Positions 4,410-64,000 of a stretch of 64,000 nt of DNA are shown one piece after another (within the stretch, counting starts at the first letter, position 1; each line of letters starts with the position of its first letter). The position numbers were made by a program, and so were the translations under genes. Below the pieces are notes generated by a model. The model saw only the letters and a program-made list of their open reading frames with translations. It ran no database searches and was not told the origin of the DNA. Origin of the DNA: Candidatus Oxydemutator sp. (lineage in GTDB: Bacteria > Pseudomonadota > Gammaproteobacteria > Poriferisulfidales > Oxydemutatoraceae); the NCBI GenBank assembly GCA_965203445.1, contig OZ241883.1, positions 1,888,001 to 1,952,000 on the forward strand, written 5' to 3'.

Positions 4410-6509
<2,100 letters not shown>

Positions 6510-6521
6510 CCAGGAGCGACC

Positions 6522-7712
6522 ATGTCGAAAGAGAAATTTGAGAGGACGAAGCCGCACGTAAACGTAGGCACGATAGGCCACGTGGATCACGGCAAGACGA
6601 CGCTGACGGCGGCGCTGACGAAGGTGTTGTCGGAGAGTCAGGGCGGGGAGTATCGTTCGTATGATCAGATAGACAACGCGCCGGAGGAGCGCGAGCGAGG
6701 GATCACGATAGCGACGGCGCACGTGGAGTATGAGTCTGCGGGTCGTCATTACGCGCACGTGGACTGTCCGGGGCACGCGGACTACATCAAGAACATGATA
6801 ACGGGCGCGGCGCAGATGGACGGGGCGATATTGGTGGTGAGCGCGTCGGACGGACCGATGCCGCAGACGCGGGAGCACATATTGCTGGCGCGTCAGGTGG
6901 GGGTGCCGCACGTGGTGGTGTATTTGAACAAGGCGGACATGGTGGACGACAAGGAGTTGATGGAGTTGGTGGAGATGGAGGTGCGGGAGTTGCTGACGAG
7001 TTACGAGTTTCCGGGGGAGGAGGTACCGATAGTGTCGGGTTCGGCGCTGAAGGCGTTGGAGGGAGACGAGGGTGAGCACGGATCGGGTTCGATCATGAAG
7101 TTGGTGGGGGCGATGGATGAGTATATTCCGGAGCCGGAGCGGGCGGTGGACGGTGATTTTCTGATGCCGGTGGAGGACGTATTTTCGATTTCGGGCCGGG
7201 GCACGGTGGTGACGGGTCGTATAGAGCGTGGAGTGGTGAAGGTGGGAGACGAGGTGGGTATAGTGGGCGTGCGCGAGACGACGTCGACGACGTGCACGGG
7301 AGTGGAGATGTTCAGGAAGTTGTTGGACGAGGGACGCGCGGGGGACAACGTGGGGGTGTTGCTGCGCGGGACGAAGCGCGAGGAGGTGGAGCGGGGTCAG
7401 GTATTGTGCAAGCCGGGGTCGATCACGCCGCACGTGGAGTTTGAGTCGGAGGTGTACGTGTTGTCGAAGGAGGAGGGTGGTCGTCACACGCCGTTTTTCA
7501 AGGGTTATCGTCCGCAGTTTTATTTTCGGACGACGGACGTGACGGGCGAGGTGGAGTTGGAGTCGGGAGTGGAGATGGTGATGCCGGGGGACAACGTGAA
7601 GTTCAAGGTGAGGTTGATAGCGCCGATAGCGATGGACGAGGGACTGCGATTTGCGATCCGCGAGGGCGGGCGCACGGTCGGCGCCGGCGTCGTCACCAAG
7701 GTTATCCAATAG
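6522..7712 (+). CDS. tuf: Elongation factor Tu
   Basis: [26 protein letters not shown]; 396 aa. Confidence 0.99.
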
Positions 7713-7736
7713 GCGCACCGCGACGGGTATAGACGC

Positions 7737-8063
7737 ATGGCGCAGACCGACCAGACCAGCCAGAGTATCCGTATCCGCCTGAAGGCGTTCGACTATCGCC
7801 TGCTCGACAAGTCGGTGCGCGAGATTATCGAGACGGTCAAGCGCACCGGCGCCCGCATCAAGGGGCCGATTCCGCTACCGACGCGCATCGAGCGCTTTAC
7901 CGTGCTGATTTCTCCGCACGTGGACAAGGACGCGCGCGATCAGTACGAAATCCGCACCCACAAACGCATCATTGATATTCTCGACCCGACCGAAAAGACC
8001 GTGGACGCGCTGATGAAGCTCGATCTCGCGGCCGGCGTCAACGTGCAGATCAAACTGAGCTGA
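7737..8063 (+). CDS. rpsJ: 30S ribosomal protein S10
   Basis: [25 protein letters not shown]. Confidence 0.99.
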
Positions 8064-8069
8064 GGGGGG

Positions 8070-8705
8070 ATGATGGCGCTCGGATTGATAGGCGAGAAGA
8101 TCGGGATGACGCGCGTATTTTCGGAGGATGGGCGCTCGCTGGCGGTCACCGTCGTGCACGCGCCGGTCAACCGCGTAGCGCAGGTCAAGACCGCCGCCAA
8201 AGACGGTTATCCGGCGATGCAACTGGTCGCCGGCGGGCGCAAGCCGTCGCGGGTATCGAAACCGCTGGCCGGCCATTTCAAGAAGGCCGGCGTCGAGGCC
8301 GGCGGCGTGATCCGCGAGTTTCGCGTCGGCGAGGACGAATTGAGGCAGGTCGGCGAGACCGTCGGCGTCGACATATTCGAGCCGGGGAGCATGGTCGAAG
8401 TGACCGGCACCAGTCGCGGCAAGGGGTTCGCCGGCGCCATCAAACGCCACCATTTCCGCAGTCAGGACGCGAGCCACGGCAACTCGCTGTCGCATCGTGC
8501 GCTGGGTTCGGTCGGCCAGTGTCAACTGCCGGGGCGCGTGTTCAAGGGCAAGAAAATGCCTGGACGCATGGGCGGCGTGCGCGTTACCACGCGCAACCTC
8601 GAGGTCGTGCGCGTGGACCTGGAGAGAAATCTGCTGCTGATCAAAGGCGCGATTGCCGGCAGCCGCGGCGGCACCGTCATCGTGAGGCGACGGCATGGAA
8701 CTTGA
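8070..8705 (+). CDS. rplC: 50S ribosomal protein L3
   Basis: [28 protein letters not shown]. Confidence 0.99.
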
Positions 8706-22310: not shown

Positions 22311-23144
22311 GAACCTATCTCAAAATCGAATATCTGCTGATTATCGTGTATGATCTATTGCATGGTACGATTGAGCGACGAGCAATGGGAACGCATACGC
22401 AAGCACTTCCCAGAAGAAAACATCCCGCCGGGTCGGGCCGGTCGCAAACCGGTGCCGACAAGAAAAGTTCTCGAAGGCGTCCTGTGGATCCTCAACACGG
22501 GTGCACAATGGAAGATGCTGCCGCAATGTTATCCGAATTACAAAACAGTTCATCGTCGTTTTCAACGATGGTGTATGAACAACACCTTGCGCGATCTGCT
22601 GGTGGACTTGGCTAACGATTTACGCAAGGAAGGGATCGTGGACGAGAGGGAGTGTTATATAGATGGGATGTTTGCCGCGGCCAAAGGGGGTGGCGCCGAG
22701 GTGGGTAGGACGAAGCGCGGAAAAGGCGTCAGAATCATGGCCATAGTGGATAAGCATGGTCTGCCGTTGTCGGTCAGTACGCACGCGGCGAACCATCACG
22801 AAGTGACCTTGGTGCAGTTGAGTTTTGACTTTTACATGATAGAGGCGAAGCCGAAGAACCTGATAGGGGATCGCGCCTATGATAGCGATGGTTTGGATGA
22901 GGAATTGCGCGCTTCGGGGATAGAGATGATAGCCCCGCACAAACGCAATCGTAAGAAACGCAAGACCCAGGATGGTCGCAGACTGCGCCGCTATGAAAGG
23001 CGCTGGATAGTGGAGAGATCTTTTGCATGGCTACAATGGCAACGACGAGTGTTAACACGGTGGGAGTATTACGCGCATAACTTTTTTGGTTTTGTGCAGC
23101 TGGCCGCCATGATGATATTGATTAGGCAATTTTGAGATAGGTTC
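22311..23144 (+). mobile_element. IS5-family insertion sequence, 834 bp, apparently intact
   Basis: Perfect 16-bp terminal inverted repeats GAACCTATCTCAAAAT (22311-22326) and ATTTTGAGATAGGTTC (23129-23144); TTATTT on both flanks; one transposase ORF. Confidence 0.93.
22362..23135 (+). CDS. IS5-family DDE transposase
   Basis: LSDEQW, WILNTGAQW, IDG, GDRAYD, RRWIVERSFAW. Confidence 0.95.
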   Translation: MVRLSDEQWERIRKHFPEENIPPGRAGRKPVPTRKVLEGVLWILNTGAQWKMLPQCYPNYKTVHRRFQRWCMNNTLRDLLVDLANDLRKEGIVDERECYIDGMFAAAKGGGAEVGRTKRGKGVRIMAIVDKHGLPLSVSTHAANHHEVTLVQLSFDFYMIEAKPKNLIGDRAYDSDGLDEELRASGIEMIAPHKRNRKKRKTQDGRRLRRYERRWIVERSFAWLQWQRRVLTRWEYYAHNFFGFVQLAAMMILIRQF

Positions 23145-41160: not shown

Positions 41161-44100
41161 CTAATAATCGCACAGCCGTCCGTCCACCGTCATCAACAGC
41201 GACACCCGCAGCTTGCGCCCGGGGTACAGCTTGGCCACACCGTCCCGGTAGCACAGCATCTGCTCGCGACAGTCTTCGAGCAGTTTTTGCGGGTCGTAGC
41301 GGCGGTGGGTTTTGTAGTCCACGAGCCAGGCCGCGTCGGCGCTGACGCACAAGCGGTCAAGCGTGCCGAAGACTTGTTCGTCGTCGCGCTGGTAGAGCAG
41401 CGGCATCTCGTTGAACACGCGCTGATACAGCCCGTCCGTGAACAGCTCGGACAATCGCGGTTCGCGCACCAGCTCCCACGCCTCGCGCACCCAGGCGTCA
41501 AGCTGGTCATGCGGTTCGTGTCGTTCGTCGGCGAGGCGCCGCCGCAGCGCGTCGGGATCGCCGCAGGCGCACGTGTTCAAGAGTTCCAGAGCGCGGTGGA
41601 TGAGTGCGCCGCGCGCCGCGCCGTCTTCGTGTTCCGAACCATGGGCGTGGCCGGGGGCGCCGTCGCCGCGCCGCTCGATTCGGCTCGGGTTGCGCTCGAC
41701 CGCGATCCGAGGTGCCGCGACCTCCGTCGTCGGCGCCGTCGTCTCTTGCTCCGCGTGCCGCTCCTGAGTGGGCGCTTGGCGCGAGTGCGCGCCGATGCGC
41801 GCAAGCGCGTCGTCGCCGAGCAGGCCGTCGTCGCCGGCCGCGTCGCGCAGCCGTTGATACCAGTTCGCCTCGCTTGCCTTGCCGTTCGCGGACACGAACA
41901 GATACTGCTTCGCGCGCGTCAACCCTACGTAGAGCAGGTTGACGTCTTCGCGTTCCTCGTTCCGTTTGCGTTTTTCCACCAGTTCGCGCAACGCGCCGCC
42001 GCGCTCGCTGGCAACGGGCAGCAACGCCAAATCGCGCGGCCTCTCCTCGGCGGACGGCCAGTCCACCAGCGCCCCGTAGGTTTCCTTGCGCGATCTGCGA
42101 AAGGCGCAATCCACCAGGAACACGATCGGTGCCTCCAATCCCTTGGCGCCGTGTATGGACAACAGTCGCACGCAGTCGCCGTCGTCCGCCGCCGGCGCGT
42201 CGGCGCGCGCACCGGCGAGGCGTCTCGCGTTTTTCAGATGCGTGAGCAGGCGCGCGCAGTCGGGGTAGCGGCCGCTGTGCAGGTCGAGCGCGTATTCGAG
42301 GAACGAGTCGAGATTGCGGCGCACGCGCTCGCGTTCCTGCTCCGGCACCGACGCGCGGTAGCGGCGCACCAGGTCGGCCTCGTTATAAATCCGATCCAGC
42401 AGGTCGTGCGGCGGCAGCCGATCATACAGTCGTTCCCACTCTTCCAGCTGCTCGGCGATGGCATGCCACGGCGCGCCGCCGCCGTTCCCGCCGAGGCGCG
42501 CGAGCTTGTCACGCCAGCAATCGCCCGGCGCGCGAGCGATGGCAAGCAATTGTTCGTCGCCCAGCGAGTAAATCGGCGAGCGCAGCACCTGGGCGAGGGC
42601 GTCGTCGCGGTATGGGTTTCGCAGAAATTCCAGCAGTGCGATCAGGTCCGACGCCTCCAGGCTGGTCACAAAGTTTTGCTCGCGCGCGCTGACCGAGGGA
42701 ACGCCGGCGGTGCGCAACGCCTGCAAGAACACCGGATAATGCGTCGTCTGTCGCGCGAGTATCATCGCGTCGCGCCACTGAAACTCGCGCACTTGTTCGT
42801 GTTCTCTGATGGGAAGTCGGTTTTCCCTGAGTTGGACGATGGTGCGCGCGATTTCTTTCGCCTCGCGCCGCGCCGCGAACTGCGATTCCGCGAGCGGCTC
42901 CCGCAACGGGTTGCGCCATTCCTGCTGCGGCGCCTTTTCCGCCTGGTGCAACTCGAACACGCGCACGCCGCCGTCGGTGTCGCAAAACGTGTCGTGCGTC
43001 GCAAAACCGGCGGGCGCCGTCGGGCCTTCTTTTCCGGCGGCCCCGCCGAAAACGCGGTTGACGAACTCGATCACGGCGCGCGCCGAGCGGCGCGACTTGT
43101 CCATTGTCGGGTGCAGGCTGTCCGGACGTCTTTGCCGCAGCCAATCGTCGGCTTCGTGCTGCAATTCCGGGTCGGCTCGGCGGAAACCGTAGATGGACTG
43201 CTTGACGTCGCCGACGATGAACAGGCTGCCGCCCTCGCGCGACACGATCTCGCAGAGCAAGGGTTCCAGCAGGCGCCATTGGGTCGGATTGGTGTCCTGG
43301 AATTCGTCAATCAACACGTGCTCGATGCGGTTGGCCAGGCGTTCCTGCGGGTCGTGCCCATCGCGCAGCAGCCGTTCGCCCATGAACTCGAGGTCGTCGA
43401 AATCGAGCAGGCCGTTGTCGCGCTTCAGATCGGCGTATATGTCGCAAAGGCGCCTGCCGGCGCGCCACCACGCGGCGTTCAGCCGCTCGTTGTCGCGTCG
43501 CAGCAGGCGTTCGTGTACATTGCCGAGGTCCTCGACGAGCGCGCGATGTTCCAGGCTCAGCCGTGCCGCGTTTTCCTCGCCGAGCGCTTTGACCAGCGGT
43601 TTGCCGCCGGGTTCGCGGCGCGGTTTGCCGCCGGCTTGATAAAAGCATGCCCGCAATTCCACGAAGGCTGCGCGGTCTAGCGTCTCGCGCACCGCCAGCG
43701 CATGCAGCCGTTCGGCCCGTCGAAGATTGGTCTCCGTCTTGTGTCTTGCAATCAATTCGGCGTAGCCCGCGACGCGCGCGCGCGCCTGCTCGCTCCAGAA
43801 TCCCCCCAGCACTTCGGCGCAGCCGCCGCCATCCGCCGATTTCGGCCGCTCGCCGCCGCCTTGCACGTAAGCCTGCCAATCGTTTCGGTGCCGCAGAAAC
43901 TCCTCGAGCGCGCCGCGTGCGTTGTCTACCCCGTTGCACAGATCGAACAGCGTGTCGAGCGCGCGCGCGCATTCGTCGTCCCCGTGCGTGACTTCGGCGA
44001 ACAGCTGTTCCACCGCCTGCACGCGCAACAAGCCTTCGAGCGCCTCGGCCAGCTGAAAGTTCAGCGGCGCCTCGGTCTGCATCGGAAACAATCGCAGTAT

Positions 44101-44484
44101 CTGCTGACAGAAGGCGTGGAAAGTCGTGATCTGCACCGGTTCCGGCGCACGCAGCAGTTCCTCGTACAGGTTCATCGCGCGCGCGCGAACCGGCCCCGTA
44201 TCACGCGCGCCGATCTCGCGCAGCGACTTGCGCAGATCTTCGGCGTTCATCGCACTCCACTCCAGCAGCCGCGCCATCAAGCGCTCGCGCATCTCGTCGG
44301 CGGCCTTGTTCGTGAACGTTATCGCGAGAATCGAGGCCGGCACGCGCCGCTCCAACAGCAGGCGCAACAGGCGCGACACCAGCAGCCAGGTTTTGCCGGT
44401 GCCCGCCGACGCCGACACGACGCCGCTGGCTTCGGGCGCCAGGATCGCAAGGGCGTCGGTCGCGGTGTCTTTCGAGGTTTTCAT
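41161..44484 (-). CDS. addA: AddA/RecB-like UvrD helicase-nuclease
   Basis: ASAGTGKT, ITFTNKAA, DEFQDT, VGDVKQSIYGFR, HGAKGLE, YVGLTRA, C-terminal DRL..DYKT nuclease. Confidence 0.9.
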   Translation of the reverse strand: MKTSKDTATDALAILAPEASGVVSASAGTGKTWLLVSRLLRLLLERRVPASILAITFTNKAADEMRERLMARLLEWSAMNAEDLRKSLREIGARDTGPVRARAMNLYEELLRAPEPVQITTFHAFCQQILRLFPMQTEAPLNFQLAEALEGLLRVQAVEQLFAEVTHGDDECARALDTLFDLCNGVDNARGALEEFLRHRNDWQAYVQGGGERPKSADGGGCAEVLGGFWSEQARARVAGYAELIARHKTETNLRRAERLHALAVRETLDRAAFVELRACFYQAGGKPRREPGGKPLVKALGEENAARLSLEHRALVEDLGNVHERLLRRDNERLNAAWWRAGRRLCDIYADLKRDNGLLDFDDLEFMGERLLRDGHDPQERLANRIEHVLIDEFQDTNPTQWRLLEPLLCEIVSREGGSLFIVGDVKQSIYGFRRADPELQHEADDWLRQRRPDSLHPTMDKSRRSARAVIEFVNRVFGGAAGKEGPTAPAGFATHDTFCDTDGGVRVFELHQAEKAPQQEWRNPLREPLAESQFAARREAKEIARTIVQLRENRLPIREHEQVREFQWRDAMILARQTTHYPVFLQALRTAGVPSVSAREQNFVTSLEASDLIALLEFLRNPYRDDALAQVLRSPIYSLGDEQLLAIARAPGDCWRDKLARLGGNGGGAPWHAIAEQLEEWERLYDRLPPHDLLDRIYNEADLVRRYRASVPEQERERVRRNLDSFLEYALDLHSGRYPDCARLLTHLKNARRLAGARADAPAADDGDCVRLLSIHGAKGLEAPIVFLVDCAFRRSRKETYGALVDWPSAEERPRDLALLPVASERGGALRELVEKRKRNEEREDVNLLYVGLTRAKQYLFVSANGKASEANWYQRLRDAAGDDGLLGDDALARIGAHSRQAPTQERHAEQETTAPTTEVAAPRIAVERNPSRIERRGDGAPGHAHGSEHEDGAARGALIHRALELLNTCACGDPDALRRRLADERHEPHDQLDAWVREAWELVREPRLSELFTDGLYQRVFNEMPLLYQRDDEQVFGTLDRLCVSADAAWLVDYKTHRRYDPQKLLEDCREQMLCYRDGVAKLYPGRKLRVSLLMTVDGRLCDY

Positions 44485-63233: not shown

Positions 63234-64000
63234 TCAATCCTTCGGAGTTTCCGCCAGCTCTTTCAGACGGTAGAGCAGCTCCAGCGCCGTGCGCGGGCTT
63301 ACATTGTCGGGATTGGTCTCGCGCAGTTCGTCGCGCAACGCGTCGGCAGCGGCGCCCTCGGCGGCGGCCAGGCCCAGCGGCATTTGATCCGGGGCGCGCG
63401 CGAGCGCCGGGTTGTCGCTTTCCATCTGCGCCAGTTTCTTGCGCGCCGCCTCGATCACGGGCTTCGGGATGCCGGCGAGGCGCGCGACTTGCAGACCGTA
63501 GCTCTTGCTGGCGGCGCCCTCCTTGACCTTGTGCAGGAACACGATGTTCTCCTCGTGCTCGGCCGCGTCTATGTGGACGTTGTGCAGCGCGTCATGGTGC
63601 CCGGCGAGCGCGGTCAGCTCGAAGTAGTGGGTTGCGAACATCGTCAGCGAGCGGTTCACGCCGGCCAGGTGCGAGGCGCAGGCCCAGGCCAGGCTCAGGC
63701 CGTCGAAGGTGCCGGTGCCGCGCCCGATCTCATCCATCAGCACCAGGCTGTTCTCGGTCGCGTTGTTCAGGATGTTCGCGGCCTCGGTCATCTCGACCAT
63801 GAACGTCGAGCGTCCGGAGGCGATGTCGTCGGCGCCGCCGATGCGCGTGAAGATGCGGTCTATCGGCCCGATCTCGGCGTCGTCGGCGGGCACGAAGGCG
63901 CCGACGTGCGCGAGCAGCACGATCAGCGCGGTCTGGCGCATGTAGGTGGATTTGCCGCCCATGTTCGGGCCTGTGACGATCAACATGCGGCGCGTGTCGT
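63234..64000 (-). CDS. mutS: DNA mismatch repair protein MutS (5' truncated by window edge)
   Basis: [40 protein letters not shown]. Confidence 0.98.

Follow-up and report, generated by a model that had tools for sequence, protein, structure and literature searches.

The duplicated genes for elongation factor Tu (EF-Tu), tufA and tufB, are said to exchange sequence through RecA-dependent gene conversion, and GC-biased gene conversion has reportedly been found in bacteria. The codon bias of highly expressed genes is reportedly a product of translational selection, and such genes normally make little use of ATA, TTG, AGG and GGG. The tuf gene of Thermus thermophilus, an organism with two tuf genes, is said to have G at about 61% of its third bases, which we treat as an unconfirmed lead. 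Here we describe tufA of Candidatus Oxydemutator sp. (positions 6522 to 7712, forward strand, of a 64,000-nucleotide stretch of contig OZ241883.1, positions 1,888,001 to 1,952,000, hereafter the window; positions are those of the window unless the genome is named). Its purine-ending codon usage is real and extreme, and is favoured by no other gene of the genome. In the Salmonella tuf system, conversion reaches up to 1e-5 per generation for poorly recognised mispairs, mismatch repair cuts conversion 200-1000-fold, and T/T is repaired less well than A/A, according to the part of that report drawn on here (Paulsson et al. 2017, PMC5485169).

The locus shares features with each of these systems and departs from all of them. 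GC-biased conversion is likewise a non-adaptive conversion bias able to mimic synonymous selection, but it raises G + C, whereas here C is depleted, the G + C share of third positions (GC3) is not raised (0.81 in tuf, 0.82-0.89 in its neighbours), and a single strand shows a preference for purines over pyrimidines; among low-GC relatives, A even outnumbers C. As expected under translational selection, no gene in the genome has a stronger codon bias than tuf, but the ribosomal protein (r-protein) genes do not share the bias and lean weakly the opposite way. The G share reported for T. thermophilus tuf, unconfirmed as it is, resembles the 62% found here, in a different phylum. The concertedly evolving tufA/tufB pair of Salmonella and Escherichia coli is alike in its two near-identical copies with identity ending at the borders of the coding sequence, in the presence of mismatch repair and in persisting inter-copy differences that are rich in transitions; the part of that report drawn on here describes no directional base bias and no consequence for codon usage, in contrast to the extreme purine-ending tract of the present genes (Paulsson et al. 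2017, PMC5485169). In mycobacteria, codon-biased translation through tRNA reprogramming involves uridine 5-oxyacetic acid (cmo5U) and ACG codons and, as far as the portion of the source used here goes, also concerns transcripts rich in G-ending four-fold codons (PMC5114619); here a single gene family is concerned, cmoA and cmoB were not found, and there is no known link to stress. We found no paper on a tuf-specific G-ending or purine-ending codon bias in a literature search outside which most subscription journals and supplementary files lay.

G outnumbers C by 481 to 204 between positions 6530 and 7655. In 300-nt windows, GC skew rises to +0.506 within tufA and ranges from -0.08 to +0.16 over the flanking 14 kb. 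When 600-nt windows were taken genome-wide (mean -0.018, standard deviation 0.108), the top two were the two tuf copies, at +0.49 and +0.48. The third positions of tufA comprise 246 G, 74 C, 30 A and 46 T, and the third-position skews of the two copies (+0.54 and +0.55) exceed by about five standard deviations the average for 1,460 open reading frames (ORFs; mean -0.068, standard deviation 0.121), among which the highest non-tuf gene reaches 0.36. The neighbours fusA (-0.06; 282 G and 318 C at third positions) and rpsJ (-0.09) are near zero. Furthermore, a score of tuf-like codon log-likelihood per codon gave 0.35 for the two tuf genes, 0.07 for the next gene and -0.34 on average. A sequence-only reading of this DNA had drawn attention to an abrupt G-rich, C-poor codon tract in tuf, and all of its counts were reproduced (30 G and 6 C at 6961-7020, against 18 G and 20 C in fusA at 5761-5820; 11 of 19 Ile codons ATA; the last 18 codons C-ending); genome-wide, the two tuf copies were the highest of all windows and ORFs by skew and by third-position use.

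The purine-ending body of the gene comprises codons 2-378 (6525 to 7655, forward strand; n = 377), with third bases G 241, C 62, A 29 and T 45. G-ending codons dominate most boxes (GCG 96%, ACG 96%, CCG 100%, GAG 100%, AAG 89%, CAG 88%, GTG 81%, TCG 79%, TTG 67%) and ATA accounts for 58% of Ile codons, while T-ending four-fold codons are scarce (GCT, ACT and CCT 0; GTT 1). Boxes that offer no synonymous purine stand at or above genome values (GAC 81%, CAC 92%, AAC 100%), the Gly and Arg boxes are nearly even, and TTT exceeds TTC, TAT exceeds TAC and TTG exceeds CTG. The rule in the tuf body is most simply stated as a third-position purine wherever a synonymous choice between purine and pyrimidine exists, the last 18 codons excepted. 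This rule is equivalent to avoiding the codons read by tRNAs with G at position 34 (G34), and the GC skew arises because G is the preferred purine in a genome of 64% GC. The absence of TTA, CTA and TCA codons from tuf also explains an antisense ORF of 527 amino acids at 6135-7718, which lies in register with the gene.

The second tuf predicted by the sequence-only reading was found at genome positions 1878428-1879618, 16 kb upstream of tufA and outside the window, with the same skew. It stands in a tRNA-Tyr/Gly/Thr-tuf-tRNA-Trp-secE-nusG context, where tRNA-Thr ends 28 nt before tufB. The shared tract (6519 to 7702, forward strand) is identical to genome 1878425-1879608 except for one mismatch at tuf nt 1137; it begins 3 nt ahead of the ATG, ends at tuf nt 1181 and has unrelated flanks. 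The skew starts at codon 2 and ends after codon 378 (nt ~1134), 47 nt short of the end of identity. The skew is thus confined to the tract shared by the two copies, as had been proposed; the 5′ edges of skew and identity coincide at the start codon, and the 3′ edges do not match. What follows the body is a tail of 18 codons (7656 to 7709, forward strand), mostly GGC, CGC, GTC, GCC, ACC and ATC, with third bases G 4, C 12, A 1 and T 1. The r-protein genes favour the same codons as the tail, which is conserved from family to family within the order. Summed over 20 two-copy genomes of the order, the purine-ending share of codons with a choice is 121/175 (69%) in the first 18 codons, 2971/4257 (70%) in all but the last 18, 139/225 (62%) in codons -36 to -19 and 71/285 (25%) in the last 18; inter-copy identity in these genomes ends between -15 and +6 nt relative to the stop codon. 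No model that we considered accounts cleanly for the reversed tail. A 3′-polar conversion tract as its cause was weakened, as inter-copy differences are not denser in the tail.

Concerted evolution of the two copies is observed in all 20 two-copy genomes from the order, where each pair differs at 0-46 nucleotides. In the EF-Tu tree, each genome's two copies fall together, and DNA identity of tuf is 0.98-0.997 within a genome and 0.89 between congeners. Transitions make up 170 of 225 inter-copy differences, as compared with 420 of 738 between-species differences, and this richness in transitions fits conversion gated by mismatch repair. Both MutS and MutL are encoded, so that the mismatch repair on which a conversion model depends is present: mutS lies at the end of the window (63234 to 64000, reverse strand, truncated by the window end; TIGR01070 1105 bits at genome 1951261-1953783), and mutL elsewhere in the genome. 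A full RecB was not found in the genome. A RecB-like helicase-nuclease of 1,107 amino acids is encoded at 41161-44484 (reverse strand; 154 bits, RecB cut-off 696), and DNA ends in this genus may be handled by a different kind of AddA- or RecB-like enzyme.

The trait is widespread among relatives. Of the 22 tuf loci from two families of the order (f1 and f2), 21 have a third-position skew of at least +0.29 with flanks near zero, and the sole exception stands at +0.14; family f3, with 1-Mb genomes of 35% GC, has a single tuf with little or no excess. The bias persists through ordinary sequence turnover. Between this genome and a congener, four-fold sites differ at 32.8% in tuf, 30.6% in fusA and 36% in rplC, so silent sites turn over normally while the bias is kept, which excludes a relic of transfer. 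In relatives of 46-53% GC, the G/C/A/T shares of pyrimidine-second four-fold boxes are 61/12/21/6 in tuf and 32/24/24/20 in flanks; in other words, both T and C are lost, A is unchanged and G is doubled, which is not the simple removal of synonymous C that the first interpretation had supposed. In these lower-GC relatives (R, purine; Y, pyrimidine), tuf has no CTY, ATA is raised, AGY falls below the flanks and AGR is not raised over CGR. Genomes labelled as alpha-, beta- and gammaproteobacteria, and several further families, also show a third-position excess of tuf over its flanks. On an EF-Tu tree of 173 rows, built by a quick method and with many forks unresolved, the high-excess label needs at least 10 changes, of which well-supported branches force at least 3. 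The trait is thus old, maintained and recurrent in Proteobacteria, and neither a local, recent event nor a recent burst of mutation is compatible with a skew that is common to two families and recurs elsewhere. The pattern looks like that of a long-acting force on duplicated tuf alone.

Our best reading of the cause of the purine bias, held tentatively, is a strand-polar gene-conversion bias between the two tuf copies that favours purines. Under this reading, tufA and tufB would evolve in concert by gene conversion with a bias toward coding-strand purines. The heteroduplex would mostly pair the broken copy's coding strand with the intact copy's template strand. Where the recipient carries a pyrimidine and the donor a purine allele, a pyrimidine-pyrimidine mispair (C-C or T-T) would form, which mismatch repair would see poorly; the mispair would escape, conversion would be completed and the purine allele would spread. 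The reverse case would produce a purine-purine mispair (G-G or A-A), which would be recognised and the event aborted. In the long term, third positions able to hold a synonymous purine would be driven to G (in relatives of lower GC, to A), codons for Asp, His and Asn would stay untouched, and the drive would override the weak opposite preference of the r-protein genes. Several facts on mismatch repair behind the mispair argument are general background, and what we infer is how the heteroduplex is polarised, which way the bias points and that it is strong enough.

A purine-favouring conversion bias could account at once for the restriction to tuf, which is observed directly, for the conflict with the r-protein genes, for the purine rule including ATA, for the unaffected Asp, His and Asn boxes and for the association with two copies, although we put this at somewhat below an even chance. 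It draws as well on the conversion properties measured in Salmonella tuf and on the presence of MutS and MutL. The opposition of tuf to the r-protein trend is as expected of a non-adaptive drive. It is possible, and here we are a shade more cautious, that escape of pyrimidine-pyrimidine mispairs from mismatch repair drives the sole long-lived and heavily used duplicate of these genomes, overrides translational selection in the bacterial gene with the highest expression and has acted in this way more than once among the alpha-, beta- and gammaproteobacteria. The earlier suggestion of a process linked to conversion remains in this sense the leading candidate, a provisional one, while its placing of that process as local or as common to repeats does not stand. 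Of the outcomes that the sequence-only reading had set as refuting, a single tuf and an EF-Tu grouped with an unrelated donor did not occur. As regards copy number, 10 high-excess genomes outside the order were checked; six of them carry two full copies, and in the other four the second copy is missing at a scaffold gap or where a contig begins immediately upstream of tRNA-Trp/nusG. A Nitrosomonas-labelled genome put forward as a single-copy counterexample was rejected, as its second copy falls in a scaffold gap. Inside the family, one genome is solidly single-copy (G013; the source genome is labelled G000, and other G numbers are labels of compared genomes), and among 54 polarised synonymous changes on its branch, 37 are from G to another base and none from another base to G.

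A contrast between copy numbers also speaks for a conversion bias: none of 10 verified single-copy complete genomes has a tuf-minus-flank difference of at least 0.3 (maximum 0.17), and 9 of 36 two-copy genomes in a class sample outside the order, 19 of which were picked from a similarity-sorted list, reach 0.3. Several observations weigh against such a bias. The contrast just given is not significant (~0.09 one-sided by hand calculation), the single-copy genomes are mostly small and low in GC, and related genomes are not independent. Two copies are also insufficient, since the remaining 27 of the 36, together with four two-copy alphaproteobacteria, have no excess. About half of the G lost in G013 became A, so that part of the decay is a shift in GC content, and its third-position purine share is still 0.58. 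The number of inter-copy differences (0-46) is unrelated to skew, and the tail is homogenised like the body (12.5 versus 9.6-11.8 inter-copy differences per kb) with the opposite bias. The polarity of the heteroduplex is an assumption of the model. The near evenness of the Gly and Arg boxes and the failure of AGR to rise over CGR in relatives do not follow from it, and the preferences for TTT over TTC, TAT over TAC and TTG over CTG are outside its reach. Some Gly codons are kept as GGC across families, which indicates real selection on tuf synonymous sites.

Some further observations concern copy loss. A decayed second tuf was seen in one single-copy genome (L182, G095:C1:362575-363306; 61% identity, 8 in-frame stops), 16 kb from the intact gene, and is a natural snapshot of tuf copy loss; the intact tuf of this genome has the highest single-copy excess, 0.17. 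The drafts G012, G016, G018, G041, G044, G046 and G048 break or gap exactly at the second tuf, so that tuf counts in drafts are lower bounds. A shift in EF-Tu amino-acid composition between high- and low-skew genomes was left unused because it is confounded by GC content and relatedness.

The rival that fares best is selection on decoding specific to tuf, in which purine-ending codons, read by C34, U34 and lysidine-C34 tRNAs, would be favoured over the pyrimidine-ending ones read by G34 tRNAs, and gene conversion would merely keep the copies alike. Such a preference might keep EF-Tu synthesis robust or regulated when heavily used G34 tRNAs become limiting, or might reflect extreme ribosome traffic. 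It fits the codon pattern as well as a conversion bias does: the rule tracks tRNA classes over 46-67% GC, with four-fold pyrimidine-ending codons avoided, CTY at 0, ATY replaced by ATA and AGY Ser below the flanks, and every four-fold box has G34, U34 and C34 tRNAs except Arg CGN (anticodons ACG and CCG), in a genome of 45 tRNA genes that are nearly all single copy. Synonymous selection is visible in the C-ending tail and in some GGC and CGC codons that are conserved across families. Furthermore, the tuf genes of other lineages lie equally far from fusA and rpsJ in the C-ending direction (for example, tuf -0.55 with fusA -0.01, and tuf -0.36 with fusA +0.39), so that tuf is often far more codon-polarised than its neighbours.

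Selection on decoding would nevertheless have to explain why tuf alone is affected, against the trend of other highly expressed genes, and we found no reason for this. The r-protein genes, rplL, fusA and rpoBC are unshifted, with a weakly opposite lean. Among 23 ORFs of the translation clusters (r-proteins, rpoBC, fusA and secY), the mean tuf-like score is -0.3485, as compared with -0.3483 for the rest (P = 0.79), and the third-position skew of rplL is +0.06. The r-protein genes exceed the genome in GGC (73 versus 65%), CGC (71 versus 57%), TTC (77 versus 69%) and ATC (71 versus 65%), and the corresponding shares in tuf are 27, 28, 25 and 32%. General translational selection was rejected on these grounds, as the bias is not common to the r-protein genes, which lean weakly to C-ending codons. 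By our own calculation, log-odds of about 3 per box in tuf imply that genes at one-fifth to one-tenth of its expression should shift detectably. The single gene of G013 must supply all EF-Tu, yet it loses G at third positions, and no decoding rationale is apparent for the reversed tail. The six boxes with near-total use of G are those read by cmo5U tRNAs in E. coli. This reading of tuf was dropped because cmoA and cmoB were not found in the 100% complete genome (no match to TIGR00740; TIGR00452 at 26 bits, with a cut-off of 275), which leaves cmo5U-dependent reading of G-ending codons unsupported. Taken together, we consider selection on decoding possible but doubtful.

Selection on the composition of the RNA is improbable. 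It supposes that a C-poor, purine-rich mRNA folds weakly and offers few C-rich loading sites for Rho, which might be of importance for tufB, whose transcription follows that of untranslated tRNA genes, the nearest 28 nt away. The tuf mRNA does have a C/G ratio of 0.44 and 62.6% purine (0.87 and 53.7% in fusA), and its mean folding energy in 150-nt windows is -43.9 kcal/mol, as compared with -52.3 ± 2.0 for recodings by genome usage and -56 to -60 for neighbours. The shortfall from shuffles of its own codons (-47.0 ± 0.9), which would have pointed to selection on codon order for weak folding, is gone once the tail is omitted: native order is then no less structured than own-codon shuffles in 8 of 8 genomes (z from -1.3 to +0.8). 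The weak folding of tuf is thus a by-product of its composition. Protection of the tRNA-tufB operon from Rho is not supported either, as the tRNA-linked tuf is the copy kept in 7 of 10 single-copy genomes, none of which has an excess, and the gene of G013 is tRNA-linked and losing G at third positions. Purine loading at first positions (AGR and AGY) is absent, by which loading of the RNA at all positions was rejected, and no such pattern is seen in other genes of high expression. The avoidance of dipyrimidine or YC dinucleotides as targets of Rho binding or ultraviolet light was rejected as well: pyrimidine-ending Gly codons occur at 9 of 16 sites before a pyrimidine and 14 of 29 before a purine, so codon junctions show no avoidance, and TCG exceeds AGY. 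One segment, 7300-7449 (forward strand), folds more weakly than all 200 of its dinucleotide-preserving shuffles (z +2.41) and shows no effect against codon-preserving ones, which the codon periodicity of G and C probably explains. Rfam gave no match in 5500-8500 at E-values up to 1; the 3′ ends of the two tuf genes fold no better than shuffles (z -0.79 and +0.66) and with different partners, and no 3′ structure shared by them was found.

We regard transcription-associated mutation alone, that is, deamination of C and A on an exposed non-template strand followed by copying between the paralogues, as very improbable. The coding strand is indeed enriched in G + T, with an AT skew that falls to between -0.07 and -0.10 within tuf while the flanks stand at +0.05 to +0.3, and the excess of TTG over CTG, TTT over TTC and TAT over TAC would be expected. 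T-ending four-fold codons, however, are rarer rather than commoner, and ATC is replaced by ATA, not ATT. The edges are sharp: the skew begins a few nt from the ATG despite the co-oriented fusA directly upstream, and stops 54 nt before the stop codon, while fusA and rpsJ are unaffected and the r-protein and rpoBC genes show nothing. Finally, a foreign origin of the tuf body or a mis-joined contig, which would suit a codon usage unlike that of all 1,458 other ORFs, is barely credible in a single-contig genome with both copies in canonical contexts, since 21 of the 22 f1 and f2 loci share the trait, the EF-Tu tree is congruent and places the protein with its genus and family rather than with the unrelated donor that had been raised as an alternative, and a relic would have been erased at the normal four-fold divergence of tuf.

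A process acting on repeats in general had been tentatively proposed from a milder skew in the 3′ half of a transposase. Self-comparison of the genome gave 419 kb of repeats (17.6% of 2.38 Mb), comprising giant repetitive genes and insertion sequence copies. Repeat ORFs have a mean third-position skew of +0.04 and a three-copy element ranges from -0.17 to -0.28, and the proposal was rejected, as other repeats lack a tuf-like skew. The skew of the IS4/5-family transposase ORF itself (22350 to 23135, forward strand; Pfam DUF4096 and DDE_Tnp_1) was confirmed, at +0.215 overall, +0.09 in the 5′ half and +0.35 in the 3′ half. The element has at least three copies in the genome (others at genome 1820236 and 1982801) with skews of +0.20 to +0.23, and its skew is treated as its own composition rather than as part of the tuf phenomenon. 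Most of the repeats are held in giant, repetitive, adhesin-like frames of 9,000-17,494 amino acids, three of which have a skew of +0.22 to +0.28; examples outside the window are genome 838791-891275, 569222-617587 and 2333611-2366070 (reverse strand) and 1757172-1786646 (forward strand). Cumulative GC skew has its minimum at about 0.91 Mb and its maximum at about 2.0 Mb, in a curve distorted by the giant genes at 0.57-0.89 Mb. On this provisional reading, the r-protein/tuf cluster (1.88-1.91 Mb) would be on the leading strand near the apparent terminus.

The product of tufA (396 amino acids plus the stop codon) is an ordinary EF-Tu. Both copies score 743.2 bits with TIGR00485 (cut-off 522.4), and all three Pfam domains (GTP_EFTU, GTP_EFTU_D2 and GTP_EFTU_D3) match in the tufA protein. 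The gene occupies its usual place in an rpsL-rpsG-fusA-tuf-rpsJ row, following fusA (4410 to 6509, forward strand), an ORF for elongation factor G with a match to the EF-Tu-like GTPase domain, and preceding rpsJ (7737 to 8063, forward strand), both with normal codon usage. The genome is a single contig of 2.379 Mb with 64% GC, 100% completeness and 0.19% contamination. Genes were taken from a home-made ORF picker (GC3 compared with GC2) rather than a curated annotation, and the flank sets are likewise heuristic.

These findings bear on several uses of tuf. The gene is included in reference sets for optimal codons, for growth-rate prediction and for codon adaptation indices, and in these lineages it says the opposite of the r-protein genes. 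Composition-based island finders can take purine-skewed tuf tracts for foreign DNA, and tuf tracts break short-read assemblies, as in four draft genomes here. If selection is the true cause, there would be an undescribed constraint on decoding or on the regulation of EF-Tu synthesis. If a conversion bias is the true cause, it would be one of purine against pyrimidine on one strand and not of GC, and the codon usage of tuf would be partly non-adaptive; tuf would then offer, in bacteria, a clear example of an essential gene in which a non-adaptive drive outweighs selection.

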